From the NCBI GenBank assembly GCA_008632985.1, contig QPGO01000299.1, positions 1 to 64,000 on the forward strand: 64,000 nucleotides of DNA, read 5' to 3'. The notes under the pieces were generated by a model that worked only from the letters and a program-made list of their open reading frames with translations, ran no database searches and was not told the DNA's origin. Within the stretch, counting starts at the first letter, position 1; each line of letters begins with the position of its first letter. Made by a program: the position numbers and the translations under genes. The stretch is from Psammoneis japonica (taxonomy: Eukaryota). This document shows positions 1 to 29,430 of this stretch, one piece after another.

Positions 1-1
1 T

Positions 2-1273
2 ATTCCTATCACTAGCACTCCCGGACCCCTTCCACATTCAGTGTCGGTGAGTACACATATTAACGTTCCTGCCGAAGCCAATGCCCTTCATTCTAGAAAG
101 AAGGGGATGTCGCTACCTTCTCGCAACAAGTCGTTGTGCTCAGGATGCGGCAAGCCGGCGAACAGCTTTTTAATGGCTATCGACAAGAAGTACCACCCAG
201 AATGCTTCAAATGTATTGGGTGTAATTTAGTCATAGATTCGACCGGGCCCTTTGCCTATATGACCATTGAGGGAGAGAGGCATCCGCTCCACCGAAAATG
301 CTACACAGAACTGTATGGGGTCAAGTGTGCTGTTTGCGGGTGTTCAATTCCTGCAGGACCCGATGGAAAGGTTTCTTTCGTGAAACATCCGTTCTTCGAT
401 ACAGAACAGATGTGCCCCAAGCATGCTTCCGACCCAGGGCGGCGATGTACTGGATGCCATCGTTTCGAGCCTGAAGGACAACCTTTCGCTGATTTGGGAG
501 ACGCAAGTCGTTGTGTCTGCTTCTCTTGTTGTCGAACCGTAGTAGTGGATGGGAACGATGCAAAGCCACTGTGGAGAAAAGTTATTCATTTCTTTGAGAG
601 CAAGTTACAGTTGCCTATATGGAAAGAAATGAGGGAAGTTCCTGTTCTGATTGTCGCGTTTGATGCTTTGAATGACCAGCTGATGAACTCGGGAGGTGTA
701 CATGGAGGTTCCTCTCAGATCATGACTCGCGGCCTGTGCCTTACTGAACACCAAAGCGGGAGGAAGTTCAAACTTTCTCGATTGAAGTTTGATAGGGACA
801 ACCAAAGCTTTGAGGCTTGTGATGTGGAAGAAAAAGGATTCACTTTCTTTCAGGTACCAGACGCGAATAAAGCCAACCCAGATGCGAGTGTCACCGCGAT
901 ACTCTGTCTTTCCGGCCTACCTGGAGATTTGGCAGCTAGTGTTCTTGCACACGAAGCGACACATGCCTGGATTAAGCTTCATCCTTCGTTTAAGATCGGT
1001 TCCCCCATCCCACCTATGGTAGAGGAAGGCGTAGCGCAGCTCGTAGCAATGTTGTTCTTGGCGGATGGGTTAGAACCGGCATCCACTGAAACCTATGGAG
1101 ATAAGGGTCCATCTGATGAGAAGTTGCGGCAGTACTTCAAATTCAGTATCGAAACAGACGACCATGAGATATACGGGGAAGGTTACAGAAGAGCGGCCAA
1201 AGCGTATGCAGATATTGGAATAGAAGCGCTTCTCAGCCATGTTGTTTTGTACAAAGAATTCCCTCTGACTTAA
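2..1273 (+). CDS. DA1/DAR-like protein (LIM zinc-binding domain, LIM-like Cys/His region, C-terminal zinc metallopeptidase); 5' end lies upstream of the window
   Basis: The frame is open from position 2 with no ATG before the LIM region. It has a LIM pattern (CSGC...HPECFKCIGC...HRKC), a DA1-like KHPFF...CPKH...CTGC...CFSC region, TRGLCLTE, and an HExxH motif (LAHEATHAW) followed by EEG. Composition is normal. Confidence 0.85.
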   Translation: MPITSTPGPLPHSVSVSTHINVPAEANALHSRKKGMSLPSRNKSLCSGCGKPANSFLMAIDKKYHPECFKCIGCNLVIDSTGPFAYMTIEGERHPLHRKCYTELYGVKCAVCGCSIPAGPDGKVSFVKHPFFDTEQMCPKHASDPGRRCTGCHRFEPEGQPFADLGDASRCVCFSCCRTVVVDGNDAKPLWRKVIHFFESKLQLPIWKEMREVPVLIVAFDALNDQLMNSGGVHGGSSQIMTRGLCLTEHQSGRKFKLSRLKFDRDNQSFEACDVEEKGFTFFQVPDANKANPDASVTAILCLSGLPGDLAASVLAHEATHAWIKLHPSFKIGSPIPPMVEEGVAQLVAMLFLADGLEPASTETYGDKGPSDEKLRQYFKFSIETDDHEIYGEGYRRAAKAYADIGIEALLSHVVLYKEFPLT

Positions 1274-1462
1274 AAAACACGCATGAGCTGATCGAATGCG
1301 CTTCAAACTATTAAGCTTTGTGATTCAAGCATCCGGCGGTGTTAAAATAATCAATCGTCACTTTAAAATACTTGCATTCCTCAATATGTAACGACACCTG
1401 CAGAGCGTAACCTGCGCTCGTCAAAAGACGATCACTTCACTCTGTTGTACTTTTCTAAGACC

Positions 1463-3183
1463 TCACATTTGCATAGGTTCTGGTCGATTCTCTGCATCAA
1501 AATTCATGTTCGACGAAGTAACACCTCGCGTTCCCTCCTTGGCTTTTTGCAACTGCTCAGGATCCAGATTTGCCGCTAGCCATGGATGTGTCAACGCCTG
1601 CTCTGCAGTATAACGATACTCGGTGTTATAAGAGAGAAGAGTGGAGACAAATGCCATGGCTTCATCTGATACATCTCGAAAAAGTTCGTGGGGGAATGTA
1701 TACTCCCCCTGAACAATTGATGCCTTGATAGCTTCATCATTCTTTCCGTAGAACGGAGGCGCCCCACTCAAAAGCATGTATACGATAACCCCGAGACTCC
1801 ATAAGTCACAGGCTTCAGTATATGACTTCTTCAAAACCTCTGGAGCTACATAGTATGACGATCCCACAACTCTACTTAGTCGAGTTCCTGGTGTGAAATG
1901 GGTAGACAAGCCGAAATCTATGAGCTTCAGCGGGCTCCATACGTCTTTTCCGGATTCAAGAACCCAGTTCTCGAGCTTGAGATCCCGGTGGCAGATGTGG
2001 CGAGAGTGAAGGAAAGCTACAGCTGATAGCATTTCTGCAACAGTTTTCGCTACGAACAGAACTAGTGTCGTCAGAAGACAGGGTGACAACGCATTCACAT
2101 TCGTTCGCGCAAAGGATTCAACTCACCGGCATACGCTTCCGTTACTCCGTGCTTTGGGTGAGTAGTCAATAAATGAAACAAATCTCCGCCTCTCCCAAGC
2201 TCAGTTATTATGAACAACTCGTTATCGACACAAAAGACATCAAAAAGACGAATCACATTATCGTGTCCGCGCAGCTCACGCAACACGTTGACTTCCTCTT
2301 GCAGTTTCCCTATGTACTTTGGGTCATTTCGAAGCATGACGCATTTGCATGCGAACTTCTTACGCTTGCCAGAGCGACCGGATGACGAGTGGCCTTCGGC
2401 TTCTCCGCGAGAAGCAATGCAAACCTGACCGTATGATCCTTTTCCGATAACTAAATCACGGTGGAGAAGGTACGCCGGTCGACGATGTGGAGTCGGAGGT
2501 TCCTGAGACGAATCTCCTGTGACATCGGGAGATGGGTAGTTTCCAGTGCCACAGTCTGGTACATTGCTATTCGTAGAGAGCGTGGACTTTTGATTGTTTC
2601 CGAACCGCGGTGCTGGAGCCTGGGGAGGAGGAAAATGCTGCGAAGCGTCACCGTCGGGAACCTGTGGGAAGGCGGTATATTGGAGAGGTGACCCGTTCTT
2701 GTATCGCTGATTAGCTGGCTGAGAACGACTCGAAGCTGACCGGGAAGGAGGTCTTGTCACCCGACTACGAGAGTTGGCATTACAATCAGATCCCGGTTCC
2801 CCGTTGGACAAAGGCCTTGACCGAGCTACCCGTGTCATCCGGCCGGTGGCCTGTTCATATCCTTTGGTGGAAGCAGAAGGCGTGCTAGATCCAGGAGAAT
2901 GCTGATAGCGTGTCTGGTGAGACATCTTACCACGCCTATCATCGTGGCGAGATAAATCGTTTCCTACGGCCACATTCTGCGCGGCAGCGTCATAGCCAAC
3001 CATTGGCTGCGAAGTCGGTGGAGCCGAAGTTTCAAGTGCAGCGGCTGCCGTCCCCGGTGCCATCTCGGTTGTGCGAGATTGTGAACGAATGCGGCCGTCT
3101 TCCAAATTGGCGTTGCCGCTGTTGTTGTCTTCGTTGTCAATGGTTTGCTGGCCAAATCCACCACGACGCAGCCACTTGCTCAT
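1463..3183 (-). CDS. CAMK-group (CDPK-like, no EF hands) Ser/Thr protein kinase; exons 3183-2127 and 2049-1463; about 547 aa with a long low-complexity N-terminus
   Basis: Kinase motifs IGKGSYGQV, FACK, HRDLKLEN, DFG, YYVAPE and DLWSLG are present. A 77-nt intron at 2126-2050 (GTGAGT...TTCGTAG) joins EAYA-A-KTVAEM in frame. The ATG at 3183 (MSKWLRR) is the inferred start. Confidence 0.9.
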
Positions 3184-3487
3184 TGTGGTCTCTATCGTAG
3201 CCGACTGAAGCAGGCAACGGGCAACGGCTGAAGCGCTCTTTACACGCCCGAAACAATAAGTACACATAGGTATTGTTATTATACGGTGTTTAGGTTTATA
3301 TATGATTACGGTGAATAGTTCGTCAATAATCAAATATTCACCAATGCCACCGAAACCTCCTTTTCCCCTGATACATGATTCTGACAAAATAATTGAACAT
3401 ATTAAGTTATTAATTTCTTTAATAATAAAAAGCTATTCAAGGCCTAATAATAAGTTATTCCTTACCACATGCACTCACACCATTTCT

Positions 3488-3532
3488 GTTCGGTACCGGT
3501 ATGACTGTACAGTACAGTGCAATACGTACATG
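3488..3532. promoter_or_regulatory. GTAC-rich tract upstream of the kinase, at the gene/repeat boundary
   Basis: Four GTAC motifs in about 45 bp (cggtaccggtatgactgtacagtacagtgcaatacgtaca). A regulatory role is inferred only from position. Confidence 0.3.
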
Positions 3533-5899
3533 AGACGGTCAGCAGCTCGCGAAAACTGTGAATTTTTGCATGCATGCGCCGCCAGCATGGGCTGTCACTT
3601 GCTTTCAGCAGTCAGGTGCCCCTGCTAGACTATGACAATCCCAAACAGCCACAATCACAACCCCTCAATGTGCTGGCCACAACCCACATTGGGTTGGGGC
3701 AGTTGGCTCCACATTGCAAAACACATTGGTTCCAGCATGTGTTCTCCTGCCACTCAAACCCAAGTGATTGCTTCTTCAGCATGATGGCTCCCTCTCTCAA
3801 CACAGAGTGCAAACCTGTGCTTCATTTGTGCGTGCTTGTTTGCATGTGAAGTTTCCTGCCTTATTTTTTCTGCTTGTGTGCACAATCTTGTCACCTGGTG
3901 CAACCAACATTGGCAGCAACAACAAAAGCACACCAGCTCTGTCACACACTGCCAACTGCAAAGAGGCCTTTTTGCTCAAAAGCTCCAGGTTGTGACGGAA
4001 CACTGTTTGCTCATGCACCACACAAAAGTCACAATGCACATTTCTGCATGTTCTTTTTTGCAATGAATTTTCATGTGCCCCACTGTTTTGAGAAACCCAC
4101 AGATTTTCATTTTGGCCATTCTTTCTGAAAACAAAATTTGGTGGTTGCATTTTTTCACATGTGAAAGATGCAGCTGACTGAGCACACACTAGAAATGACA
4201 CACTTCAAGCATTTGTGCTCAAGTCAATCACAACATTTCCTCTTTTTTGTTGGCTGTTGTTGGTTGTTTGACAGTTTTGTTGCAGAGCTTGCAGGCAAAA
4301 TTCTGTGGGGGGCAATGTCACGTACATGCCAATGTCCCATCTGTGGCTGAAAGGCACGGGCCAGCACCCAGTGCCAAAGTGACAATGTTCCACTGACAGT
4401 CAAATTGCATTGCTCTTGGTTGAGAGTCATTTCAGGTTGAGAACCCATGCATCATGCATCTGCAGGAAAACACACTGTTGCTCTCTCTTTTTCCACTCCT
4501 GGAGCGACGGATCGTCACAAGAACACTTGTGGCTTGCCCCACCTCCTGGCAAACAGTGCACATGTGACAAAGAGAGCAAGTCTGCAGGCAGCCCAATCTG
4601 TGCCTCATTGGGTCATGTCCAATCCATTGACACTGCCAGCTCCCCTCAAAGAACAACTGTTTGCAGCTTTGAGGTGCTCATTTCATGCAAAAATGCTCTC
4701 CAACAAGTTGAGTTTACACCTCAGCAACTGGGCCCAAAGAAAAGGGTCCACATGTAGAAGGAAAATGCAAGCACAGGCAATGCCCAAGAACTTGAGAAAA
4801 CTGACAACACTCTGACAGCCTTGTGTGCCATGGCACAGAGAGACAGTTTTGACCCAGGCAAGAGTGCAAACTCAACAAGTTGTTTCAAAAAGCCTCTCCA
4901 GTGTCAATGTCAATGACCCCAACAACTCAAGCTCTGTGGGACACTTGTGATCTGGCTGTGTCCATCTCAACTGTGCAGCTTAATTGCTGCATGAGAAAAA
5001 CACATGCAATGTTTGACAGCCACTGACACAAAAGTTGTGAAGGCAAGCAACGGACAAGTGGTGCAAAACAATTTTTTGAGCATCCCCGGATGGAACCTGG
5101 GCAAACAACAGCATTTTCATGTTTTTCCCACACAACTGAAAAACCAACACTGTGTTCTCAAACCACTCATAAAAAGCAAACAAAACTCACCCAGCCCATG
5201 AGCCAGTCCAAAGTGGCCACCCCTTGCTCTTGTTTCATTTAATTGCTGCCACAATCAAAAATCCAAAGATCACTGATTTTGACAGGGAAGATGTGAACAA
5301 AGCAGTTGTTGTTTTCATCTGCAGTGGCCACATTTGAGGCTTGAGAGCTTGAGAAATAGAGCACCTTGTGTTCGTCCAACTTGAGAAAAAGAGCTGCAAG
5401 GTGAGAAGACACCAGCAAGACACCACAAAGATCTCAAACTTGTTGCACAACTCTGCTTCCCATCAGAGCGCCATGATCATCCCTTGGAAGCAGTTTGCTG
5501 TTTTGGTGCTCAACAGTTTGCCATTTTGGTGCTCAACTCTGCTGGCAAATTGTCCAGCTCCGGCATGTGTCCCATGCTCAGAGGTGCAGACACCTTTGTC
5601 AAAAGAGACACCCTCCAGTCCTCTTGAGTGAAATGCCTTGAAAGAAGAATCAACCAATGACAAGTCTCACAGAGCTTGTTCTTGCCATTGCCATCATTGC
5701 TCCTTTGTCAGCATTGCCACGAGGCAAAGATGATGTGAGCTCTGCTGTCTAACCTCTTTGGGAGCATCGCCACATGAAAATGCCATCCCACCTGGCCATT
5801 CTTTTCCATCATCAGCCATGACTCTTCCATGTGTGCACCCTTTCGTCACAAGTTTGGCTTCAACGGATTTCTCATGGCTGCTGAGAGCAATGTGTTGTC

Positions 5900-8146
5900 A
5901 GTGTTTGGGTTGACCAACCAAATGCATTTTGAAGGGAAGCCTTGTGTCATCATTGATGTGTCAATGTTGTCCAGATCCATCAAAGATGACACCCATGGAA
6001 CCCAACTTTTGCCAGCAGATGTGTCTTGTGCATCTGCAACCATCTCTCCTTTCTCAAGTGATGAGCCCACAACATTGAGTCTAAAGCAGACAACAACTTT
6101 TGTTGTGGCATTGTTGACAATTTGTTCGCAGTTCCCCAATTTGGAGACAAAGAGCACAATGATCCCTCTGGGCACTTTCCATTGCAGCCTTCAATGAGGA
6201 GCTCACATTGGCTCCACACCAAATGAGGAAGTTCCTTGGGAGTGCATCAAAAGCAGCTGACAAACTGCAAGAGAACTTTTGACATTGATGAAAAAGCAGT
6301 GTGTGCTGGTGTGCTTGCATCAGGAAATTGCAAACTTCTCTCAGAGCAAGCATCAGAGTACAATGACAACTTTCACTCCATTCCTGCCTGTTTGCACCAT
6401 TGCATCACAAATGAAGAAGAAACATTGCTTTGCCACATGCCCTCCTGGTGCCCAAGTTTAGATGGAGATGGTGCTCCAAGAGCACGGGCATCTGGTCTTT
6501 GGAAACTGATCCCAGTCCTTGGATTTGTGGTAAAACCAAACCTTCTTTGTGTCCCATCACAATGCCATGGTCATTCCCCCAAGTGTTTGTGCTGGCTCCA
6601 AGAGAGGCCACTTTGGCCTCTTCTCACTTTTGCAGCTTTGTTGATGCAGGAACACCCAGATCAGCATGACTGGACCAAGTGAAGCTGTCAAAGTAAAAAT
6701 TTTTTCTCCTGCCCACCACACCCTTTTCTTTTTTGTGTTTTGGGGCAGGTGCTCACACATCTCTTGGGAACCAAGGGAGCTGCTGAGGATGTGAGCAAGG
6801 AAAGCTGATTGGATGTTGTGCCTGGAGATCATTGAGAGGACTAGTGGAAATGCCCTCTCCACATGGGGATTTATTTTTACAACAAGCTTCCGCCACAATG
6901 GGCAATGCCATGGTGTTTCTTTGTTGCTGAGCCCAGAAAGCTTGGATGACCCCCCAGGTTGACTCCAGGGTCATGCCTTTGAGCCCTCACTGCTGTTCAA
7001 GCAGCAAGACCCTGTGGAGGGTGTGGCAAATTTTTTTGCTCACCCCCCCAGTGTGACTTGCATGCATCTGCCAACAAGTGCATTGAGTTGTGAGACTCTT
7101 AGTTGCATTTTTAGCTTGTTTGGTTTCCCAATGCTCTCTCAGTGGTTTGGTTGTTGTTTGGGATCAAGTTCAAGCCTGGTGTTCATGCACATCAGCAAAT
7201 TGGATCCACCTCCTGAGATCCAATCTGTCACTTGCAAATTGCTGCAGGTTTGCTGCAGGTTTTCCCTCCTCCTGCATGAGGCATGAAAACTTTTGCAAAA
7301 CCCACACTTCCGGCATCAAGTGATGTTCAAATACAAAGCTGAGCATTGTTTGGAAAACACCCATGGCCAAGAGTGTGATCTGCCAAATGGTCATGAAGAG
7401 GGTGGAGAACAGCCCCAGACAAGCTGCAGCATGATCTGGAAGAGAAGCTTCTGAAGGATTCAACTTCATAACTCCAAAACAACAGCTTTGGACAACTCCG
7501 CTTTCTGTGACAAGTTTGGCCAGTTGTCAGCCTGACCAGTGCTTTGCACTGGCACAGGTGACATGAAAGACAAACTTTGCCATGAGAAAGAAAGTTGGTT
7601 TGTGGAATGATGCCACCTCATCTTAGGGTTTGGCATGCCAGCTCAGAAGACAGCCACTGTTCTTGCTCTGACAACTCATTTGGCTGCTCCTCTGACAAGA
7701 AAGAAGCAACTCCTTGGGCCATCCAAAAGCATTGGTTTTAACATGGTGTCAAAAAATTTTGACAATGCTGTGAGTTCAAAAGAAAATTCAATGTGGTGGC
7801 ACAAGCTTTGCACAAACAAAGCAAAACAACCAAATCTAAATTTTGAGCACCATTGCTCCATTGACCCACACTTTAAGCACACCAGCAAGTGTGGCAGAAA
7901 CTTGCAAGGATTGGCCAAGGTTGGCACCACCTTGTGACAATGCCTGCCTGAGGAGGCAACAGGGAACAGTGAGACAACACATTGCAGGGTTTGGAGCAGC
8001 AGCTGCCTGTCATGCCACAATGGCCAAGGACAGTTGCACTTAGAAATTGGTTCAAGAGCAGCAACATGGCCACCAGGAGTGGAAAGATCACCACACAGAG
8101 CAGAGAGCTTGACAAGCTGGCAAGCAAGGAAGGGTTGTCTCCAAGA
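5900..8146 (+). mobile_element. Highly decayed retroelement remnant, possibly DIRS/Ngaro-like; continues after the nested insertion at about 13447-13900
   Basis: Only fragmentary motifs remain (FxQFP, LGFVV, DGDG, VPG...ALS, W-x-QKNFDN). The sequence at 13450-13875 is similar to the minus strand of 34840-34990, so it is a repeat family. Confidence 0.3.
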
Positions 8147-8598
8147 CTGCGTCTGGTGGGGCAACAATCTGAGATGCAAGCCAGCATGGCAAAATTTCCG
8201 TTGCTGCAGAAAGTCGGATTTGTCCTACATTGTTAATTGCCTGATGCTAACACTGCATGCCGGCGTGCAGACAACTGATGTTGTGTGTTAAACCAAGCTA
8301 TAATCTCACACGCTCATGCCTGAGTTGATTCATGCAACACATCACCTGCCACGTGTCGTTAACACCACGTGGTTCGTCCCACTCATTTTCATCTCACCTG
8401 TTTTTACAACACGAACAATGGCGCCCCCCTTTGCCATTGGAAATGATTGTCCCATGTGCGGCAAACGGCAAACGTTTTCTCCCAACTGGTCTTCAACACC
8501 ACCTGAGAACTTATCTTCCCTGCAAACTGTCCTTTTCTCAAAGCCTTCGTGACGTTTCTTCCCGTCAATCTGACGCCGCTCATGGTGAACATCCCCAA

Positions 8599-9906
8599 AT
8601 GAGAGAATCAGATGAACAAGTGGATGTTTCTGCCTCTTCTACCCTCGGCTCTCCTCCATTCGAATTTATCTCCGCAGGGCCTGACTCCAACGAATGGCAA
8701 AATCCACAAGGTTACACCCGACACAATCCCCGCCCGTTGCACTCCAATCGTGCACCTTCATCTGTGCCAGAGCTGTGTGGTTCCCACAACAATTCTGTTT
8801 TTCCCCACACCGATGATGTTTCAGACTGCCAGTTTCCAGACCCTGAAGAATTTGTTTCCGACACCGAGGGTTCTACCACCAATGTTGCAGATTCTGGCCC
8901 TTTTTCCACAGCACTCGATCAAGTTGGACACCTCTCCGCGGATGAGGACCTTGTTGTGCCCAAAGTGCACAACTGCAAAATGACATCCATGGTCCGCATG
9001 TTGAATTTGTGTTGCTCCAAGGGTGTCCCAATCAGTGCAACAGATGAACTGCTGAGAACTGTGCAGGAGGAATTCTCCAGTGGTGGGTTGTCCATCACCC
9101 AACAAATTCCCTCTTCTAGAACTTTCATGTCCAAGCTCAAGTTGATGTTGCCCAGCATTGTGGTCCCGGTGTTGCAGTGCGTTCCTCTCAAGTCTGTGTC
9201 CATTGTCAACCAATTCAAGAACGACCTGCCTCAGGAGCTCTCTCCCGGCATCCCTGTGTACGACTTTTCACTCCAACTGCAGGATCTGTTTGACGATCCC
9301 CTTTTTGCCGATCTTTCAAATTTTGATGTTTCTCCTGATTCACGTTGGTCTCAGGTGCTCTCCAGTGAACCCATGTTGGACAAGAATGGTGACTGGAAAC
9401 TTTGTGACAATGCTGAAATGAAGGACGGTGAAACTTGCAGTGACTGTTTTCGTGGCAGCAATCATCCCGCCGTTCCCGGTTCCTTTCATGTGTTTGTTTT
9501 GCATTGCACTGACAAAACTGGGAAAGGACAGGTCGCACCTCATTCGATGGAGCCATTTGTTTTCTCTACAACTCTCATCAAGTTATGTGCCCGCCGTCGT
9601 TTTGAAGCATGGCGTCCTCTCGGATTCGTTCCGAAACACACAGGTTGCAAAACAAAGAATCCCATTTTCAGGCTGAATGTCAGAAATTACCGTGCACATG
9701 TTGCCGAGAACATTTGTTGCTTCAGTGATCAAGTCCCATTGGAATGGGTGGTGGACGATAAATGTGGTGACAGTTGGAACACAACAACGACATGGCAGGA
9801 GAAAATGGATGTTTGTCACAGAGTGGGTTGTAACCCAGCGGAAGAAAACAGCGACACAGTTGCAAAGAGGTTGTGTGACATTGTGAACACATGCGCTGCA
9901 GTGTGA
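8599..9906 (+). pseudogene. Plavaka-like transposase, N-terminal part only, mutated
   Basis: Motifs PVYDFSLQLQDLFDDP, VLHCTDKTG (read as xxYxDKTG), SMEPFVFS and AWRPLGFVP are recalled as typical of Plavaka-type transposases. Recognisable similarity stops near 9720. The 524-codon ORF has only 4 Tyr. Confidence 0.65.
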
Positions 9907-11639
9907 AGAGCATCACCTGGGACTACAACAAAACACAAAAGAATTGTCCTCAGCAATGAAAATTGAATTGTACACAATCTCTGGCTTATTTTGGTGACAG
10001 TGTGGAAAATTGAACAAAAAATCAACCCTTTTTTGACGACAGTGTGTCGATTTATATCCCAATTATGTGAAATCAAATCAACAAGGTGAAAGATGAACAT
10101 TAAAATTTTGCACTCACTTTCAGCGACACATGACAAACAAATGGTGCGATTAGAATCCCCGGTGTGTGGCCCCACAAAAAAAAAAATTTCGATGCCGGTG
10201 ACTGTGCAGAATCGAAATGGCACTGCAGCTGCCACCCATCACAATCCATCAACAGAGAATCGGTGCTTTGATCGAACATGCTGTGTTCCAATTGCCAACA
10301 GCATGACACACTGGGTGGCCTGAGATGCCTTGCATTGACCAAAGGCATCCTGGAATGTGTGTTTTCTTACATGAGCTACAGGATGATGTTGAGGGTGCAA
10401 TTTGTTAACCAACTGTTGTTGCCACACGTGCTCAATGCTTTGAGAGAAGCAGTAAAGTGAGACAATGCATTGAGAATGTGGAGGCGCGACTTTGGCGATC
10501 CCAGGTGCACTTTAATGTGGAAACACTGGGTGGACAGGCCACTGCGTGAATTGTGAAGAGAGCACATTGAGAGAGAATTTCGGATGATGAGTTTGCATGA
10601 AAAACTGGATAAAAACAGAACTTGTGTCGACTGCAGAGCTTTCAATTATTGTGTCTCGGTGGGACACATGGATGGTGACATGCACCGCAGGTACAGCTTG
10701 CAACCATTTATGAAAGGGTGGATAAAAAAGGAAAAGATCCATTGCGACACGTGCATGGACAAAGTGACGTTGACGATGGATTTGGTGGACTTGGAATTGG
10801 AGACACCGGTGCACGTTTCGCAGCAGCTGCCTTGCGCCATTGTGTTGGCTTGCCACAAAGGAGACAAAGAATGCCACTGCCCAAATGTCATGTGTGCTCT
10901 GCTGCCTGTCAGAGATGGTGAGGTGAGAGTAAGAGGAGAAACCAGTGTGGATGTGATTCATCTGGATGAACACAACAATGGTGACAGAGCCCCCTGGCCT
11001 TTCGCAGAGGGACATTGCCCCCCACTGGTGAGCGGAGACACAGCAGTGTACGACAAAGCACTCTTGGGATTGAGGGTGTTCTGCACTGGAGTGCACACAG
11101 CCAGACATGGTCACAACGGTGGATTGTACGAAGTTGTGGAGCACTTGTACGAAACGCACAAGACGGCGAGAGAAGAAGCGGGAGTCAATGAGGAAAACTG
11201 AAGGGTGACAGCAAGGCTGGGGCGATGAGTGAGGGCAAAGAGATGAGCCTAATTGCCTGGGCCTAGATGGCATAAAATCGAACTGGTGCATGCCAAATCA
11301 AGGACATTTTTAATGGAACAGCAAGTTACAAACAATGTCAAAACGGTGCTCTGTTCGTTGTGGGCAAGAAGCTCAGGGCGGCTAAGAGCATGGTGACCCA
11401 GATGGCATGGCGATGTGTCGCATGGCAGATAAAAACGCAAAAAGAAGTGTTCGGACTACAGCCCTTGCTTCTATGAAAATCTGGCCAAAAAAATAAAATC
11501 AGCTGGCAATTTGAAAATTGTGGCACACAACAGTGGGGAGTGCCAATGTTCTTCGCGCGGATCATGAAATGCACAGTGAACGGATGATGCAAGGCTGACA
11601 ATGACAAAACATGCCATTCAAAAGGAATGTAAAATTCAT

Positions 11640-13011
11640 CAATTGATGTTTGACAATGAGTGCTTTGAAAATTTTGGCATGCAATAAAAGGGAGTTTTTA
11701 AAAAGGGCCAACGGGTGTGCTGGCGGGCGCACCAAGGACTGGGTTCGGTCCAGAGGGAACAATTTCGTTGACACAACACGTGGGAACAGGTTGGCAACAT
11801 GTCGGTACAAAATGATTCATCAGGTGCGTATGTTGCGGTGACAATGCACAAACGGGTTAGCCCACTCACGCTGCTTGTGTGTCCTTCATCATGGTTGGCA
11901 CCCATGACACAACAGATGCAGGATCCCACAATGTCAAGATTGCGGGAATGTCAGTGCCAGCTTGGAGGCGGCAAAGAAAAAGTTTATGGACGGCCAGACA
12001 ACCGACTGCATTACGACAGCAGTGTGCCCCAAGACAAAGTTCGTGATGCACGACAAGATTGAGTTGGCATTCGGGAGCAAAATGCAGAAAAAGGTTTGCA
12101 AACACCTCAACGTGGACGCGGGTGACTGTGCAGTTTGGTGGGAAGAGAACAAGGAAAAGGTGAGGAAAAGACTGAACAGAAGAAGAAACAACAGACAGGA
12201 GGCATTTAGAAAGAAGATGGTTGGCAAGTAAAATTTGGGTGGCAGGTGGATGAGATGGAGCAGTGTTCTCACCCATTGATTCTTGCTCGGAAACGGCTAA
12301 GTACGAGGGACTAGAAACTGTCAAAGACATCGAAAAGGGCAGGGCATCACCTGACACTCACTTCTGGTTCTTGGAGAATTGCTGCTCCCTTGCAGCAGGA
12401 ATGGAACACTTTAAAACAACAGACAACCAAGGTGTCAGCGATTGGCCAACAACAAGTGCGGAAGCTTTTGCCAGGCTCATGTGTGACAACTGCCACAACA
12501 CGGCCTTGTCAGTGGCAGAGATCGAAGAGCAATTCGAAGCCAACGGAGGGGCGCAGCCACTGACCCAACCCGTGGCCCCCAAGTGCATTTTCATGGGGAA
12601 AGGCGCAAAACGAAATCTCAAGGATGGAACCAGGATGGGATCGACAAGTACAACAAACTCTACGATGCTGTGGCAAAGGAGAGAACGGATTGCGGCAGAG
12701 TCGATGCACAGCACCTGCAGACAAAGAAATTGGAGAGCACTCGTGGCAAGAAAAGAAAGAAGAAAAAGAAGGACAGCATGAGGGGATGGGCTGCTCCGAA
12801 AACTGATTGGAGCGACAGCGAGGAGGAGGCCACTGAAAGGAACGACGAGCAAGGGAGCGAAGAGGAAGAGGAAGAGACTCCAGGAGCAGCAGCAACCGAC
12901 AGCAGCACTTCGACACAAATGGGTTCTCGACAAAGAGGAGTGAACAACAACACACAAAAGCGACTGAGGGTGCAACAAGGACGCGTGCGGAACGGCAGCG
13001 GCGTTTGCTAG
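11640..13011 (+). pseudogene. Accessory ORF of the Plavaka-like element (frameshifted, probably one intron)
   Basis: Fragments ...LNRRRNNRQEAFRKKM, PTTSAEAFARLMCDN and GWNQDGIDKYNKLYDAVAKER, followed by a K/E-rich tail. It is homologous to 51540-52750 in the second TIR element. Confidence 0.55.
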
Positions 13012-13573
13012 CATGTGGCAGAAAATGACGGTGGCAGCGATGTTAACCAGGAAATCCACTCAGTTCGGAAGGTGCAGCAACATAGAATGTGAAAAGCATC
13101 AAAGTGTTGCACTGCAAAATGATGGGAATGTTGTCCATGTGCTTGTTAGATTTAAAGCAAGGTTTGAAAGCAATGTGAATTGGGGGCTGTCACAAAGGTA
13201 AATTGTTGCACGGTGAAAAGTGGATGAGTGTTACACTTGAAAATGTCAGAAACATTCTCCGCATGGTCATTGCATTTAAATTTTCTTGTGACACATGACA
13301 AAAAAAATTAGACAAGAAGTGAGCTTTCTGACACAGTGTGTAAAAATTTTTAAATTAAATTTTAAAAAAGAAATTCAGACATGACGGGCAAGAATGTCGC
13401 ACAAGAGTTCGCGCACTGTGTCAGATTGTTGCCCCACCAGACGTGGGAGGCAAGAAATGGGAGGACTTGATGACATGACCAGTTGCAGCTCATCTCACAC
13501 AGAAACAACACCAGAGCTCTCACAGAAATGCCCATGTGTGCAGCAAATGGATGCCCACCAAATGATGTGAAAG

Positions 13574-13849
13574 TGACAGGATTTGAACAGGATTTAGGTG
13601 CACGCGAAATGTCGCACGCTGTTTAGTTTACCGCACACAGTTTTGTGTGCTTTAGTTCCGCGCGTTCACGCGCGATGTAGTTTGCTTTCGAGCCACAAGG
13701 CTCACAAGAACAATGACAGTAGCCCAACCACACTGACTTGCATGTCTTTCGGCTCCTGTGACGGTCTCTGAGTGGAGACTCATCTGCCATTTAGACAGCA
13801 GCAAGGAGTTATTGTTTGAATTCTTGCCATTTGCCTTCAATTTCTGTCA
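13574..13849 (+). mobile_element. Solo LTR (276 bp) of a Copia family, with a 5-bp TSD GAAAG
   Basis: It starts TGACAG and ends CTGTCA (terminal inverted repeat). GAAAG lies at 13569-13573 and 13850-13854. It is homologous to the LTRs at 35582 and 54317. Confidence 0.9.
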
Positions 13850-14299
13850 GAAAGGATGACTCATTTTCACACTCCTGTGTGCCCCAGTGGAGGCAGCACT
13901 TTTGCCACTTAGAGTGAAGGACTTGACAGGACAACAGGGAGACAAAAGATTGTAGAGGACAGATGGGTGTGGATGAGAGCAGTTCTGAGATTAGACTGTG
14001 TGGTCATCCCAGGGTTTTTCAGGAGGGTGCAGAGTTTACACTGAAACCTGTTGGAAATTACACTTGAATCGGCAGAAAATTACAAAAAGTCAACAGGCTT
14101 GCAAACCACAAGGCATCAATGCTGGCTGTTTTCCACCAGAGAATGTCACTCAACATGCTGCAATGAAGCTGTGCCATTGGCAGAGATGGCCAAAATGAGC
14201 TGACAGCAGCAAGACCTGGGGAAACACTGTCTGAGAAGGGTGACATCAGCACCAGAGGGTGCACAGAAACACATGCAGAGGCTGAGGGTGAGCAGCTGA

Positions 14300-16100
14300 C
14301 ATCAAAAAGTTTGTGCAAACAAAACAACACAGACATGTGGTGGACATTGTTCAAGAATGGAGTTGCGTGCTGGTTGAACTTGATTGTCAGGACAAGAGCA
14401 TCCTGGCTTGTGTTCCATGAATTTGGCAGCCATGAAGGAGATGTCATCTTGAAACCAAAGAGTGGAAGTGCACTTTGCAGGTTCTTGTTGTTCATGTGTT
14501 TTTCCCTTGAGGTTGTGCCAACCAGCAAAGCATTGAAGAGCAGTTTCCTGCAGAAACCAAAAGAGTGTGAGTTGAAGTTCCTGTCCATTTTCTGTGTGGT
14601 TCCAGGTCCCTTTCAAGAGAGTGATTCTCATTTGAGCTGTGAGCCCCAAAGTTTTGTAAATCAAATGAAGTCCCTCATCTTCTGCATGAAACAATTGGAA
14701 AACAAAGGCCTTTTTGGAGGCCATTGTGAAGCATTGCTGAGGGTTCCAACAAAGAGAAACATGCCCAAAATGCAGGCCACATGGGTGGGCCATCTGGACT
14801 TGTGTCTCATGACAAGCACACAGCACAAACACAGCACAAGGAGAGCTGGTGCACAACACTTTGCACCAGAAGAGCTGGTGGACAAAAATTGGCATGGAGC
14901 TGACCACACCTTGGGTGACCATGGTCCTTTGTGTGCCAAGCTGATGCTGTGTCCTCAGCCCAAAGACAAAGCATCCAGATGGTGTGGCTGATGCCATGGG
15001 CACCCTCCCAGAACAAGACCAGCTCAACAGTTTCCCAAGAATGTGGTCACTGTTCCACGGGGAAAAGTTGTCATCTCACCCAGTGCACCCCCTTGTGTCC
15101 AGAACCTGTGGAAACTGTTGGTGAGAATGATGCCGGATTGGGCCTCAGATCAAGATGGTTTCCAAGTGACACCAAGTTAATTTTCATTTCTCTGCTGACA
15201 GCCCCAGCAACTCCATTGCAAAAAGAGTGTTTGCTGTCATGATGTGATTCATTGCCACCCATGTTTCCATTCCTGTCCATGGGAAAGGCACAAGTAGAAT
15301 GACTGGGCAATGGCAAAGTGGGGCACTGGCAGCCCAACCTGGAGCCATGTGTTTTGCACAAAGAGATGGTTGCATCACCAACATCAACCTGAAGCTTGTC
15401 ATAGAGAGATGCATCTGCAAAATGTGCTTCGTTGCTGGTGCCAGAGACACCTTTGAGTCCTCAGATGCACCTGCAGTGATGTTTTCAGATGAAGGAGAGT
15501 CCATGCATCAAATGATGACAGGCATTGCTTTCAGGGGTGTTAAAAGCCCTCCCCAATGGGCCTGCAGACCTGGCAGACAACCCAGGAATCATTGCTCTTG
15601 TTTCTTCGTGCAAAAAAGAGGGCATGGGTGATGCATTGTTGACACCTTGCACAAATGAAGAAGGGCATTGTTGCACATTATTTTGGACAGCATGTTTGTT
15701 GGCACAGATCAGTGCACATTGGAACCCACCCACAACAATGATTTGACAAACTTGTTTCCAAGGCAAAGTGAAAGAATTCTTGTGACAAATTGCCAGCCCT
15801 TGCTGACATGGTTGCAGCCAAACAGAAGCAAAGCAACTCTCAGCAGAAACTGCTGAAAGGCATGCTTGGATTGTGCTTGTACAAAGCAATCACTTTTCCT
15901 CCCTGTCAACATGTGCAAGAGCTGCATCTTGTGGCTGAGAGAAGGAAGCAAACTGCTCTGACCTTGCAAAAGAATGCAAAGATGGTCAAGAAGTGCCCCC
16001 AAATCCATGAGCTGCAGAAGTTTGCCTGTCCTGAAAGATGTGTGTGTCCATTGCTCAAGAAATGTCAGAAACTCACATGTGTTGTTGCTCATTTTCAAAA
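14300..16100 (+). mobile_element. Decayed retroelement remnant, possibly a DIRS/Ngaro-type RT
   Basis: The fragment MMTGIAFRGVKSPPQW (about 15510-15560) resembles an RT FGG..SP motif. The rest is unreadable. Confidence 0.25.
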
Positions 16101-16597
16101 AGAGGAAAACACAATGTCATGATGGAGAAAAATTTGAGGGTGGGTGGGTGATGCAGAGTGATTTGTCTGGACAAGCCAACACAGGGGAAACAAAAAGAAG
16201 AGAGAGTTCATGTGCCACCACCAATGGCCATGACAAAAACCAATGCTTTGAAAAAAAAAGTGTGTCTCCACAACAAAAAAAGATGGCTGTGCATTGGAAA
16301 AACAGACAACCAGAGAGTGGGGCAGGTCACTCTGCATCAGAAGAGCACACAACAAGAGAGCAGGATGGGCAAAACAAAGGGTTGGGATTGAGCAAAGCAG
16401 TGCACAAGTTCATTGGCATCAGCGGCACAGGCAAAAAAAATCAATGACTTGGCCATTCTCTTCTCAGCAAGCTGTGCACTCTGATGCAAACATGGCAACA
16501 TCAGCTGGGACACTCTGCAATGCAAATGACACAACAGCAAGAGTCAGGGTGCTTGGCATTTTACAAAGCTTGGAGAAAATTTGAACATTTTCTTGCT

Positions 16598-16738
16598 GCA
16601 AACACTCTCAAAATGGGTTGAGAGCAGTTTTTGGCAAGAGAGTGAGTGCTCTGCATTTTGCAATGCTTGCAAATGTGAGCTTCATTTGCAACCACTCTTA
16701 AAATGGGTGCAGAGCAGTTTTTGGCAAGGGAATGTTCT
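16598..16738. repeat. Two diverged direct copies of a ~45-bp motif, ~90 bp apart
   Basis: cactctcaaaatgggttgagagcagtttttggcaag versus cactcttaaatgggtgcagagcagtttttggcaag. Confidence 0.7.
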
Positions 16739-17249
16739 CTTGTTTTTCACATTTGAACAGAAAGATTTAAGAGTGTGATGTCTTGCAAAAGCTTCTCATG
16801 ACCTGCTTTAGAACAACTGGTTGTCACCAGAAAACTCTCACTTTGTGTTTGTCTCATTGTGAGACATTTTTTTGTCACACAGAGACAATTGCACTGGTGT
16901 GGTGAATGTGTCTGTGGAGCTGTCTGGGAACTCTTTGTTGTGCAAATGCAACTGAAGTGCAGGGTCACAGTTTCTAATGCCCACAAAAAACCTGCCCTGT
17001 TGCCACCTTATTTCTGAGTGGTGATTCTCACATGAGTGAACTTGCTGCCACAACGCAGCATAAAATGAGCAGTCAAATGCTCATCCAGCCCCTCCAGGGT
17101 GTGCTCATTGGCTTCTTTCTGAGCTGCACCCAGCTCCAAAGCTTCTGGGTTTTGAGCTCACTCACAATCCATCAAATTATTTGGCATGTTGGGAAAATTT
17201 GCTGAGAAACATCAGTTTTAAGATTGTCCTCTGCTGTCATCCAAAAATC

Positions 17250-19300
17250 CTTTGGGGCCACAGGTCAGCTAGATTCAGGCAATGTCATGAATGCCACATT
17301 TTGTCTGCACAGTTCTTGGCATCTCCAAGCCAGTGAACAGAGCATTTCTGTCAATGGGAAAACTTTGTCACTGGTGGCAGCACACAGGTTGACATCAGTC
17401 AAAATGGTGAAAGCACTGAGACATCAGGTGTTGAGCCAGTGATCTTGTTTTCTGCTGGGGCTCTGCCTCCCATGTGCTGTGCAACATTGAGAGCTTCTAA
17501 ACATCAGACAGCACATGTCTGTTTGAGCATTATGGAGAACCAAATGTGTGCTCTGGCTCTGGATGGTGGGACCTTGCAGCGCTGGACTGTGACAGAAAAT
17601 TGTTGATGGTGCATTGTGCAAAAGCAATGTGCACTTTTGTGTGGCCCTGTTTTGCAAAACATGCAGAGTTGGGCTTCAGCCACATCTGACCACAAAAACA
17701 AGTTTGAAACTGTTTGTCAAAGCAAAACTTGCCTTCAACCACTTGAAATTTTAACTGCAGAGGATCTTTCTGAATGGAGGGCACCTCTTGTTGGGTGCTG
17801 CATTCTTTGCAAATGTCCTTGGTTCATGTTTTAACCATCTCAGGTGTGCAGCCAAATGGAAGAGACTGAGGCACCCTGATGTCACCATGAACAAAGGCTG
17901 TCACTGCTTCCACATCATCACCTCACTTTCTTGTGCCACAGGGACAAAACCTGTTGTGCCTGGGGCTGTGTTGGCAAAGACATTCCCTCCAGCATCACAC
18001 CATGAACTGGCTTAACTTCCAGGTCAGTTGGTCAGAGGAACGCTTGTCTTTTGTCACTGGACCCTCAACTTCTTTGAGAGATGGCACACTCAAAATTGTT
18101 CACCAGGGGTGATGATGGATTTGGCAGATCATTGGCTGTTGCTCCATTGAGCTCAGGGTCAGTGCTGTCTTGGTGAGTGTTGCAAATTGCAAAAGCACAT
18201 GATGCAAAATCTTTGGCATTCCTGCTGCAAAACTTGAAGCAAAAAGCACTCCATTAGAATGGGCGAAGCAGCGGAATGATGTTGTGGACTCTGGAGCTCT
18301 TGGAAATGTGAACAATGCCTCCTTTGAGAGCTTTCTTCTACACCTTCCTTTCAGGTGTGATTCAAAGACTGATGTTGCTCTTTCTGGTGCAACTTTTGAT
18401 TTTGGAGTGCAACAGAGTGAGTCAGACTCTTTTCTTGAACTGTCCTGGGCCATTTTGAACAATCACCAACCCACTCATGGGCAGTTACTTGGGGATGATG
18501 ATTGATGAATTGGTCACTTGCCTCCCAAAAAGCACAGCTTCATGGGCTGTCAGCAGGTGAGGTTGACTTGATTCTGGGTCAACTCATGTGGCAGCAGTTG
18601 CAAAAAGAAGAGCATTCTTTGGTGGTCTGTGCTCTTTGGACCATGGTTGTGCAGTGACAGCTCACCATCAGGACTTGACAACATTGTGAAGTTGAAGCCA
18701 GCAGCACAAGTGTCAGCACGCAAGTCCAAGTCATTTGTGGTGATGCCCCCCAGCACTTTGAGCTGACAAGATGGTGAGGTGAACATCTGTTGAGAGTTGC
18801 CTGGAGGATTGCACAGTGCCAGCTGTTTGGGCAACTCCATCTTGCAGCAACCATTGAATGCTGGTGCAGTCATCTGCTGTTTTCTTGTCAACACCTCAGC
18901 TGAACTCAACACTGGCATCAACAGCCAGATGTTTCAGTGTTGGCTTTCCCCTGTTGCTCTGCACTGGCAACCTTCCCCACAGAGCAAATTTTATTTTCAT
19001 TTTCATTTTGGTTGTTGACAGCATGCCTGCAGTGCTCTGAACTTGGGGATGAATGTTGTGCAGCTGTGGAGACTGTGAATGATGGCAACTGCAGACCCAT
19101 TTCTGAGTCAGAGCATTTTGCAGCAAAACATTTGGTCATTTGAGTCGTGCACTCACTCTTCATGTGCATGCAGGAACACCTCCATTCATGAACAAAGATC
19201 TCCATTCACAAACAAAAAGCTTGCTCCAAGTTCATCTTGGTGCTCAGTGAGTGCTGCACAATTACAAATGGAGCCTTTGCTCACAAGGGCATGACTTCAG
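17250..19300 (-). mobile_element. Decayed Ty1/Copia (CoDi-like) fragment: protease and integrase remnants
   Basis: The minus strand has protease-like DLDLRADTCAAGFNF (about 18735-18690, compare ELDSHADTCVAG), integrase-like KPNSA..QNRA (about 17680-17640) and VHWLG...TLPES (about 17340-17270). Confidence 0.55.
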
Positions 19301-21436
19301 GGGGCAGTCAAACATGTGATCTTTGTGATGTGGGTTGTTCACAGGTGACATTTGGCTGTGTCAAAGAGTCTGCTCAGTGGAGTGAGTGCCAGTCATGCAG
19401 GCTTGCACAAAATGCTGCTTTTGTGCAGTGCGTCTGCTGCTGTGGGGGAGTCTTGCAATGCAAGATTTTGCTTGTGTGTGCCACTTGTCAGTGAGTCCAT
19501 GCTGCAAGCAGCCTTGCACTTGCATTTTGCCTTGCTTGACCAACCCTGATGCTGAGCTTTTTCTCCCAGCTGCTGCTTCTGTGGCCTCCCTTTTGTCTGC
19601 ATCTGCCTCTCCAAGTCCTGTCAACACAGCAAAAGGCAAGTCGGGAGCTCCATTTTTGGCATTTTCAACCAGAGTCTCAATGTGCTGCTGGTGGCAAGCC
19701 TTAAAACCGTTGAGCTTTATGGCATCCACACCAACCACACTCATTCTGGTCTTTGGTCTTGGGTCAGAAACACCCTTGTTCAAAAAAATCAAAGACCTTC
19801 TTGGTCTTGGCTGCAGGCCAGGTTCTTGCAACCTCTTTGTGACAGTGCTGAGTGCACACTCATTGACAGTGGGGCAACCCTTCTGGCATGCTTGGCAAGA
19901 GCCATCTTTGCATGGACATGGCCTGGTTCTTGCATGTGTTGGTGGCAGTGGAGCCCTCTGCCTGCTTCTTCAAGGCAAAGAATTTGTCACAACTGTCTCA
20001 AGTGTGGCTGGATGGCCTGATCAATGCTCACCCAGGTCTGTCAATCACTGGCTTCTTTGTTGTGGAACACAAAAAAATGCTCTCTGTCAAGATTTCACAG
20101 GGGCCAGTGGCAGCATCCTTGTCTGTCACAGGGTGTTTGGCAGTGAGCATTTCTGCAGTGACAACTTCATGGTTGTGATGAACAAGGCAGATGAGCAAGA
20201 CACCCATCTTGTGATTCTGTGATGATGGCGGCACACCTCTGTCTCCAGCAGCTCTTGGAGCATCAGCTGGCCACAGATTTTTTTTTGAGAAGTGCAGCCA
20301 ACTTGGAACAATCATCCAAGCCAGTGAACTTGAGCTGTTTGAGCTCAGTCAGATGCACTGTCTGGGTTGCAACAACTGGACTGGCAAGATGGCAGGCATT
20401 GAGACATGTCCTCTTGCCCTCATGCAATCTGCCCACACTTGCAGGGGGGGGGGGTTGGCAGCTCTTCCAGTTTGCCAAGTGTGGTGGGAACTGGACTTGA
20501 GTGTTGGCACCATCATTGACCACCTTGGCAATGGCTTTCAGCATTTTGCCAACTTCCATCAGCAGTGCCTGTTCCAGCATGTCACTGACAGCTGCAAAAA
20601 TCCTGCCATGCAATGTGCTGGCACATGTTTGGTTGTCACAACCACAGCACATTAGAGAGGCTGCAAAGGCTGTGCCAGTGGCAGTGGCCACAATGTGTGG
20701 CCAATTGTTTGGATTTTGGTGCATCAATTCTCACCTTTGAGCAAAATTGTGTGGTGGTTGGCTCACTTCTGTGAACCCTGTGAGCAAATCTATGAGCACA
20801 GCAAGCTCAATCTTTGCATGTTGTTGCATGCTGAGAACAATGCCAAGCTGACAATCAGACAATTGACATGTGCCAAGATGCCAAAGTGAACATGTCCACA
20901 TGTCTTAGCTTGTGCACAGCATTGGCATAATTTGCAAATTGCACTTTGATGATTGTCTTGGCACATTGCTGCTCTGACCAATGGAGCACACAGATCATGT
21001 TCACAACAATGTGCTGTGGTGGGCACAGCAAACATGGCAGTTGCGCCAGCTCCATGGGGCTGCCATGGCACTTGTTGCAATGATTGATTGAACACAATGG
21101 TGCCATCATTGCACAAATTCATGGTGTCCTCTTTGGTCAACTGAACATCACAGCACCAGCTTTGACAAAGCAAGTGAACGCGGCATGACAGCAAAAGAGT
21201 TGCTGGTGCAGACAAGAAAATGAGTTGATGCAGCAATCAAGAGGTGCTCCAAATCAAAATGTGAGAGTTGTGGAGCTGCACCCCACTGCATGGGCAACAG
21301 TTGATGCTGCACGAATGTGTTGTGCACAATGTGTGTGCACACGTCCATGTCCACAATGGCACACCAGCATCAACTCAAAATTGTTGAGAGTTGAGTCATC
21401 TTCCAATGCTTTGGTGCTGCTTTCCCAGGCTGCAGT

Positions 21437-21504
21437 AAAAATGGCAGAAGCCACAAGAGATGCAGAAGACAAAAATGGCAGAAGCCACAAAAGATGCAGA
21501 AGAC
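21437..21504. repeat. 34-bp tandem duplication
   Basis: aaaaatggcagaagccacaa(g/a)agatgcagaagac twice, with one mismatch. Confidence 0.9.
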
Positions 21505-22109
21505 ATGAAACAGAACTGCAGTTGGGTTGACAATCAAGCCAAAGAATTGCTGGAGCATGTGGAGGGCTCCATCAAAAACCCACAAGATCAATCAAGAAAG
21601 CACAAATCCAGTTGGGATGTTGTCAAACACTTGCTTCTCAAAGACATTGCAGGGAGAAATTGAAGCACTTTGATCACAACAGACAAAAGAGCATGGTGCT
21701 TGCTGCTGTGACAAAGTCAGGCAGTTGGGAGAATTTCAAGAAACAACATGACATGAAAAAGAACTTAAAAGGAACCAAGGGGAGCACTCAACATGATGTC
21801 AAGGAACTGCAAAGGGAGGTCAGAAAAGTCAGAGAAACTCACAACTGACTGCAGGCAAAGATCTCATTTTCCCAGAACCAGCCAGCCAAGGAGTTTGGAG
21901 TGCCAAGCCTTTCTTGAAGCTGTGAGTGACTGCTGCACAGCAGCATGATGTGATGGCAAGACACATCTGTCCTTGCCGCCCACCACTGGCACGTCAGAGC
22001 CAAAGTTGATGGATGGTTTCATGGAGCTGGCAATTGGTGTCAAAACAGAGCAGCTCTGTTGTGTCCCCTGGCTGACAAATCTGAACTCCATCAAAAATCT
22101 GTTTCAAGT

Positions 22110-29013: not shown

Positions 29014-29119
29014 CTTTTCAGTCTCCTACCGATAAGCTTCTCTCCTCTTGCTATTCTTGGTTTGAGAGCTTAGACGACGTGGACGTGGGACGAAACGTAA
29101 CGTGGACGTGGGCGAGGAG

Positions 29120-29430
29120 ATAGGTACCGGTAGGTACCTAGGTAGACAAATGCTTTTGCTTTTTCGGCTTCGGCAGCGCACGTACCGTATGGAACGGTAC
29201 CGTACCACGTACATTAGGCACTGACTGTGCGTAGGCCGGCGTACAGCACGTACAGTACTGTACTGTATGTTACGGTAGACATTCAAAGATGAGCGATATT
29301 ATGACTATGACCACATTGTGCTGACGTGGCGCACCATCTACAGTTAGTACGGTACAGCCAGTGGCCGGCCGGCTGGATTGCGGAGTTGGAGAGTTTGCTC
29401 TCTGGGGCCTGCTCTCTACCGTACAGTAGA
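29120..29430. promoter_or_regulatory. GTAC-rich tract upstream of the myosin, at the gene/repeat boundary
   Basis: About 13 GTAC motifs in ~310 bp by manual count (e.g. taggtaccggtaggtaccta, gtacagcacgtacagtactgtac). Function is inferred only from position. Confidence 0.4.

Follow-up and report, generated by a model that had tools for sequence, protein, structure and literature searches.

We analysed a 64,000-nucleotide stretch of the genome of the diatom Psammoneis japonica (GenBank assembly GCA_008632985.1, contig QPGO01000299.1, positions 1 to 64,000; G000:C298:1-64000 in the 91.4-Mb assembly that was searched), hereafter the window, in which decayed, repeat-derived DNA has lost nearly all of its TpA dinucleotides. 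The TpA sites that survive there are biased towards YTAR and against RTAY (Y, pyrimidine; R, purine). Polarised changes in retrotransposon copies show that the target is an A following a T, changed roughly three- to fourfold faster when a pyrimidine comes next. We read the survivor pattern as the trace of a TAY-preferring, DNA-level A:T>G:C process acting on both strands of inserted transposons, the likely agent being a host adenine deaminase, and give this reading a probability of about one half.

Surviving TpA sites in decayed repeat DNA

An earlier note on positions 3600–8146 of the window, made by eye, held that most residual TpA sites are YTAR and that RTAY is nearly gone. In this 4547-b block YTAR is the leading class, but it accounts for just 15 of the 29 NTAN sites, followed by RTAR (6), YTAY (5) and RTAY (3, at 4322, 6358 and 7331). 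The hexamers offered as examples are all present (TTTAAT at 5238, CTTAGG at 7622, TCTAAA at 6080 and 7835, ACTAGA at 4188), and the individual RTAY tetramers are as scarce as described, with two GTAC, one ATAC and no ATAT or GTAT. The tetramers expected as products of RTAY loss are likewise abundant, each occurring 25–37 times in the block; this abundance is not diagnostic of TpA change, since the same tetramers result from CpG decay, which has also run nearly to completion here. The preponderance of YTAR over RTAY in the block has a binomial p of 0.0075 and is borderline against 2000 dinucleotide-preserving shuffles (difference of 12 versus 5.3 ± 3.8 in the shuffled sequences, p = 0.0475).

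The bias is thin at 3600–8146 and strong elsewhere in the window. Across all CG-poor blocks (500-b blocks with CG ≤ 8; 81 blocks, 40.5 kb), the 242 surviving sites divide into 113 YTAR, 71 YTAY, 47 RTAR and 11 RTAY (p ~ 1e-22), and with 3501–8000 removed the counts are still 99 YTAR versus 4 RTAY. The bias is reversed in CG-rich genic blocks (22 blocks, 11 kb), which hold 73 YTAR, 110 RTAR, 95 YTAY and 117 RTAY among 395 sites. The YTAR-over-RTAY bias is genuine and runs counter to that of genic DNA, and TpA depletion depends on context, as the earlier note had proposed, rather than falling uniformly on NTAN tetramers.

Direction of change in retrotransposon copies

Which flank matters cannot be read from tetramer counts, because a preference for TAY and a preference for RTA (a purine two positions 5' of the A) would both erase RTAY and spare YTAR. 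RTAR and YTAY do discriminate, since preferences at +1 and at −2 predict opposite products there. Changes within 3600–8146 could not be polarised because the searchable genome holds no close copy of the block (best other match, 74% over 460 b). As the window has none of the TA-rich reference copies that such a test requires, three polarised data sets comprising 600 TA sites together were taken from elsewhere in the assembly. The first (F1) is a young 6577-b Copia element (G000:C37:567997-574573), for which 30 loci were projected onto one real copy, four of them serving as reference or anchors. After L130 was dropped and two copies that had been split were merged, the set comprised 23 copies and 243 of the 254 internal TA sites. 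The second (F2) is a Gypsy fragment (RVT_1) represented by the best 19 copies of 43 matches and by 108 of 129 sites, 21 being dropped where one product was common to nearly all copies. The third (F3) is a single Copia pair with 249 sites. Mean product concordance was 0.60 among F1 copies and 0.68 among F2 copies before the site drop, values low enough to indicate that copies mutated mostly independently. L130 (G000 C334) was left out because it has all 62 mutated products in common with L133 (C27), so one of the two was duplicated after mutation.

All three data sets point to the base 3' of the A. RTAR became RCAR in 110/153 cases in F1 (72%), 226/338 in F2 (67%) and 48/58 in F3 (83%), while YTAY became YTGY in 563/784 (72%), 253/342 (74%) and 38/52 (73%), respectively. 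The F1 counts are from copies at ≥91% with the dependent copy still included, and the F2 counts precede the site drop. When each site is counted once, the A preceding a pyrimidine is favoured at 231 of 274 asymmetric sites. The 5'-TAY-3' A>G target inferred in the earlier note is thus supported by product polarity and by the +1 term of the fit described below, and would not have been derivable from tetramer counts alone.

A six-base target footprint

Rates were estimated with a competing-risk model that fits exposure separately for every copy and 800-b block (6515 observations on 600 sites, with a site bootstrap), and all rate ratios are relative to A at the given position. At +1 the ratios are 4.26 for C (interval 3.55–5.85), 4.14 for T (3.35–5.69) and 1.60 for G (1.20–2.11), an order repeated in each family except F3, where G equals A. 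Smaller effects appear at −2 (C 0.73, G 0.65, T 0.57), at +2 (C 1.91, G 1.61, T 1.74) and at −3 (C 0.72, G 0.89, T 0.41 with interval 0.30–0.49), whereas at +3 and −4 every interval includes 1. The +1 term improves the fit by 396 log units and the −2 term by 51. The order of preference is finer than the purine/pyrimidine rule of the earlier note (C and T above G above A), and the context reaches −3 and +2.

The F1 fit carries over to the window. Against the survivor rank of ten tetramer classes it gives a rho of −0.89 at 3600–8146, −0.87 in the other CG-poor DNA and +0.67 in genes, and T at −3 is 1.81-fold represented among window survivors versus 0.95-fold in genes. The bases distal to the dyad mainly determine whether a site changes and shift strand choice slightly (odds 0.65–0.78); a purely site-symmetric distal effect consequently holds only in part. 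The target is an A after T, within a footprint of six bases (−3 to +2) centred on the TpA dyad, and the behaviour of the distal bases hints at recognition of the duplex. Because each TA step presents one target A per strand, RTAY is doubly targeted and erased, YTAR offers no good target and lasts, and TTAA is the longest-lived.

That TAY reads as a tyrosine codon when in frame, a link drawn in the earlier note, is a coincidence: TpA sites in the three codon phases changed alike (48%, 49% and 45%), which also rules out selection at the codon level.

Mutation spectrum and the accompanying CpG decay

In 15 young F1 copies, TA>TG affected 1120 of 6237 sites (0.18), compared with 43/9189 for AA>AG (0.0047), 44/10917 for CA>CG (0.0040) and 19/11230 for GA>GG. 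The possibility that AA>AG is also elevated, raised in the earlier note, is not borne out, its rate being ~3% of that of TA>TG. Transversions at TA numbered 14 against the 1120 transitions (~1% of TA changes), and back-mutation from TG to TA ran at 0.0015. CG>CA was seen at 120/8689 and other G>A changes at 0.0015–0.0033.

Within F1, heavily changed domains differ from spared ones beyond TpA. Non-TA A>G is up 3- to 14-fold in them and non-CpG C>T is unchanged; CA>CG reaches 0.0079 where TA>TG reaches 0.41. These off-target A>G changes (65 events at 57 sites in 11 copies) follow the +1 rule of the main target, with 57/5911 before Y and 8/6860 before R (~8-fold, p = 4e-12), and the bias is absent from spared domains (7/6218 versus 8/6866). 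'A then Y' is therefore a property of the mutator itself, to which T at −1 adds roughly 50-fold. A single enzyme that strongly prefers T at −1 would be expected to leak in this way.

CpG decay is 8-fold faster in heavily changed than in spared domains (83/3423 versus 10/3300). It has no purine/pyrimidine flank bias, loss being 0.095–0.116 across the four classes; a flank preference common to CpG and TpA decay is thus rejected, and two separate decay processes operate within one domain. Among F1 copies, CpG>TpG runs at 0.066 after A or T versus 0.037–0.044 after C or G. TpA loss can run far ahead of CpG loss, as in the copy L132, where 160/215 TA and 11/273 CG sites have changed. A further multi-copy family, which from motifs judged by eye reads like a tyrosine-recombinase retrotransposon (no Pfam match), has split direct repeats (L031-L036, L044-L047); its TA observed/expected (O/E) ratio is 0.12–0.28 while CG is retained at 0.62–0.80, so that TpA loss precedes CpG loss.

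Changes arise after insertion, on both strands and in bounded domains

The 23 F1 copies carry 1179 TG and 1002 CA products, showing that both strands are changed. Same-strand clustering was not found at 10, 30, 100 or 1000 b (1100 of 2157 neighbours versus a null of 1097 ± 20). The context-corrected sense/antisense A>G ratio is 0.84 (interval 0.77–0.96), i.e., the change is slightly rarer on the sense strand; off-target events lean the opposite way without reaching significance (p = 0.059).

Changes form bounded domains with a strong bias to the 5' end. In 14 full-length F1 elements, 82/194 TA sites are changed in the 5' long terminal repeat (LTR) versus 7/194 in the 3' LTR, and the 5' LTR is changed from its first TA sites onward while the same sites are spared in the 3' LTR. 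As the two LTRs of an element start out identical when it inserts, the change occurs in DNA that is already integrated, and homology by itself is not what triggers it. The 5' third is more heavily changed than the 3' third in 14/23 F1 copies (2 reversed, 7 level) and in 13/19 F2 copies (1 reversed, 5 level). Full-length F1 copies were picked mostly by reverse transcriptase profile and otherwise by the 3' half, a selection biased towards spared 3' ends; F2 copies were picked by overall similarity. Sequence context does not explain the polarity. The changes are post-insertion, independent in each copy and scattered as single events. The 5'-first loss of TpA is seen in the family of G000:C37:567997-574573 (L097-L113) and in L153-L171, with sharp domain ends in several copies.

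Organisation of the window

Most repeat blocks of the window have TA O/E of 0.02–0.2 and CG O/E of 0.03–0.3 with CA/TG near 1.8–2.0, whereas gene blocks keep TA at ~0.5–0.66. Spared host genes lie at 1–3432 (LIM/DA1-like and protein kinase) and 23501–29500 (myosin and neighbours), and serve as controls without YTAR bias; named homologues of the first gene come from Bacillariaceae, Chaetoceros, Stephanocyclus and Conticribra. AT-rich, unmutated DNA 5' of the kinase gene (3201–3540) forms the sharp left edge of the saturated block: 14 RTAY sites fall within 3260–3526, compared with three across the following 4.6 kb. The block itself (3600–8146), which is depleted of both TpA and CpG, has TA O/E of 0.06–0.11 and CG of 0.05–0.13 in 4001–8000. 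Next to it, at 8147–14000, TpA is low (0.18–0.26) and CpG partly survives (0.55–0.60), which may represent an earlier stage of the same decay. A second saturated, TpA- and CpG-poor block at 14001–22000 contributes to the window-wide survivors, whose main source is the large TpA/CpG-poor repeat domain at 29501–61500. The latter includes, at 30219–31470, a decayed tandem array with a period of ~300–310 b and units 70–73% identical.

A Pfam scan of 3600–8146 in six frames returned 0 families. A tblastn search of the block with the translations of seven loci (three from the tyrosine-recombinase-like family, the Copia and Gypsy loci, and two that had matched at the DNA level) gave hits only for the two loci with a DNA match already. 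A segment of ~100 b (6622–6724, + strand) is common with the multi-copy tyrosine-recombinase-like family at 69–90%. Positions 6440–6724 and L017:1340-1600 of that family contain a short non-coding segment kept despite heavy decay around it.

Comparison with known hypermutation and editing systems

Repeat-induced point mutation (RIP) of ascomycetes is a post-insertion, heritable and dinucleotide-specific transition process that destroys repeats and spares genes; it is triggered by homology, changes C to T at CpA and so creates TpA. The diatom process resembles RIP in its dinucleotide-specific, repeat-destroying and gene-sparing transitions after insertion. It differs in that TpA is lost, with TG>TA nearly absent, and in that RIP would be expected to change both LTRs rather than chiefly the 5' one.

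The closest parallel is in Bigelowiella natans, for which a preprint describes A>G/T>C hypermutation restricted to TpA in integrated DNA of nucleocytoplasmic large DNA viruses (NCLDV) as well as virophages, with ADAT2 proposed as the agent (bioRxiv 10.64898/2026.01.13.699255, Mettrop et al.). Rates were measured directly in that work, being raised ~1000-fold and active in only some lines (bioRxiv 10.64898/2026.01.13.699255). Both processes change A:T to G:C almost only at TpA, on both strands and in foreign or repeat DNA while sparing host genes, and both entail long-term TpA loss with gain of CpA/TpG. Here the host is a diatom, the substrates are LTR retrotransposons and the loss is near saturation. 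The main text of the preprint gives no flanking context, and we noticed no 5'-end polarity there. In its testable features the diatom process is of the Bigelowiella kind.

Engineered TadA adenine base editors (ABE8e-YA, ABE3.1) prefer a 5' pyrimidine and favour YAY over YAR on DNA (PMC12528748), the order found here at both TA and non-TA sites. Those enzymes are engineered, tethered to Cas9, act on a displaced single strand and accept CA; in this natural process CA is changed at ~2% of the TA rate and the strands show no clustering. Fungal A-to-I editing of mRNA by Tad2-Tad3-Ame1 has a strong preference for U/T at −1 and favours A or G at +1 (PMC11156358). It shares T at −1 with the diatom process and exemplifies a repurposed host tRNA deaminase, but its substrate is RNA, and purines are the slowest +1 bases here. 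ADAR, with a slight +1 preference for G, is also unlike the diatom process (PMC11156358). Editing of RNA followed by retro-copying would leave sense-only changes and is rejected, given that both strands are changed and that the 5' LTR is changed while the 3' LTR is spared.

The signature of polymerase eta, or non-canonical AID, comprises A>C and A>G at WA (PMC4686820). It too is A:T-directed and includes TA, and is ruled out here by the gap between AA>AG and TA>TG and by the paucity of transversions at TA. The diatom process lacks the tested features of RIP, Tad2/Tad3 RNA editing and polymerase eta, each of which is rejected as its class. No report of diatom TpA transposon hypermutation was found in the literature searched. 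A TA O/E below 0.3 occurred in 0/80 metagenome Copia relatives, a scan in which five of six search patterns need intact tyrosine codons and short-read assemblies merge copies, and which says nothing about absence in other organisms.

A candidate mechanism and its alternatives

Under the deaminase reading, the changed domain would be CG-methylated, silenced chromatin, as the faster CpG decay suggests, nucleated at the promoter end of an element. An enzyme with a TadA-like substrate pocket would convert A to inosine within that domain, slowly and over many cell generations, and replication would fix the inosine as G. Silencing of young transposons by DNMT5-dependent methylation has been described in Phaeodactylum (PMC9998398). 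A bolder version, which we advance tentatively and consider doubtful, is a natural adenine base editor of duplex DNA, a host deaminase with a 6-bp TpA-centred site (best TAY), loading at the promoter end of freshly inserted retrotransposons, spreading with silencing downstream and destroying them without a homology trigger, found across the SAR (stramenopile, alveolate and rhizarian) lineages including Bigelowiella.

The genome encodes possible components of such a system. PF00383 gives nine matches (a dCMP deaminase, a RibD-like protein, two TadA/ADAT2-like proteins, encoded at G000 C38 and C26, and two others among them), A_deamin gives four matches at two loci, and C5 methylase gives 27. 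The two separate A_deamin loci (L181-L184; G000 C40 and C79) are of ADAT1/ADAR type. Elsewhere, copies of a C5 DNA methyltransferase (L178-L180; G000 C301 and C297) sit in TA-erased DNA, with tyrosine at 0–0.5%, nearly all lost, and at L148:313-1785 (− strand) a deaminase-like segment lies in the same reading frame as a 2OG-Fe(II) oxygenase domain.

Several observations weigh against a deaminase. No candidate gene could be tied to the TpA process; the TadA-like genes resemble ordinary tRNA editors, one of them having, by eye, a hydrophobic signal-like start. CA, a good substrate for engineered TadA-YA, is hardly used here, and the +1 preference of native fungal Tad2/Tad3 is the opposite of that observed (PMC11156358). 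The lack of strand clusters and the sense/antisense ratio do not fit a deaminase working processively along a displaced non-template strand. In the tyrosine-recombinase-like family, product polarity is marginal (47 versus 29, p = 0.05; 26 versus 13, p = 0.053) and disappears when all ten divergent copies are pooled (29 versus 25); this family is ill suited to the test, all of its copies being TA-poor already. Finally, the hope expressed in the earlier note that context might separate mechanisms is realised only in part. Context excludes polymerase eta, but it cannot by itself prove adenine chemistry, because A>G in TAY is T>C in RTA on the other strand.

This last equivalence underlies an unlikely alternative that we nonetheless weigh first, in which, within silenced chromatin, the T of 5'-R-T-A-3' is oxidised (to 5-hydroxymethyluracil or 5-formyluracil) or turned by amination into a C-like base, and so changed to C. 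Its mutation spectrum would be formally identical, and the slight antisense-A excess equals a sense-strand T>C excess. The dyad-centred footprint, whose distal part acts largely on the whole site, would also suit a duplex-binding, base-flipping enzyme. Against it, Tet_JBP has 0 matches in the genome at E ≤ 0.1, in an assembly that may be incomplete, and CpG decay, the known pyrimidine-side process here, has no 5'-R preference. We also know of no citable precedent for amination of T to C in DNA.

Quite improbable, in our view, is that a polymerase of error-prone repair or translesion synthesis, distinct from classical polymerase eta, misinserts G opposite T at RTA in repair patches of methylated transposons, patches begun for example at sites of 5-methylcytosine deamination. 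The coincidence of changed domains with faster CpG decay and the scatter of events over both strands speak for it. TA loss far outruns CpG loss in L132, however, hardly any transversions occur, AA changes no more readily than CA, and a ~40-fold dinucleotide specificity is hard to obtain from polymerase infidelity. We hold it less credible still that the adenine of TAY is first N6-methylated or adducted by a sequence-specific writer, whose motif this would be, and is then deaminated or miscopied. The 6-bp footprint at a palindromic step and the bounded, chromatin-like domains fit a DNA-modifying writer, but N6-methyladenine is not known to be strongly mutagenic. Inherited composition (codon use, stop avoidance, AT-rich tracts), back-mutation or small numbers atop a context-blind TpA loss might have been entertained from the few sites and borderline shuffle test at 3600–8146, but this account is refuted by the opposite genic bias, by the preference among changes polarised from TA-rich references, seen in each of the three data sets and in every codon phase, by the rarity of TG>TA relative to the forward change and by the fit, and its probability is negligible.

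Implications

The one report of TpA hypermutation so far is a preprint on an unrelated alga, which identifies no enzyme and gives no flanking context in its main text. The quantitative fingerprint described here (T at −1, C or T at +1 favoured fourfold and G 1.6-fold over A, a footprint from −3 to +2 and a leak to AAY, CAY and GAY) makes the identity of the enzyme directly testable: a candidate has to show the same order of preference in vitro, and the mutation list from Bigelowiella can be inspected for it too. The fingerprint already excludes polymerase eta and speaks against the preference of native Tad2/Tad3, and the 5'-LTR polarity implies a trigger other than RIP-type repeat homology. 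If a natural DNA adenine deaminase is indeed responsible, it would constitute a new eukaryotic genome defence and be of interest for base editing.

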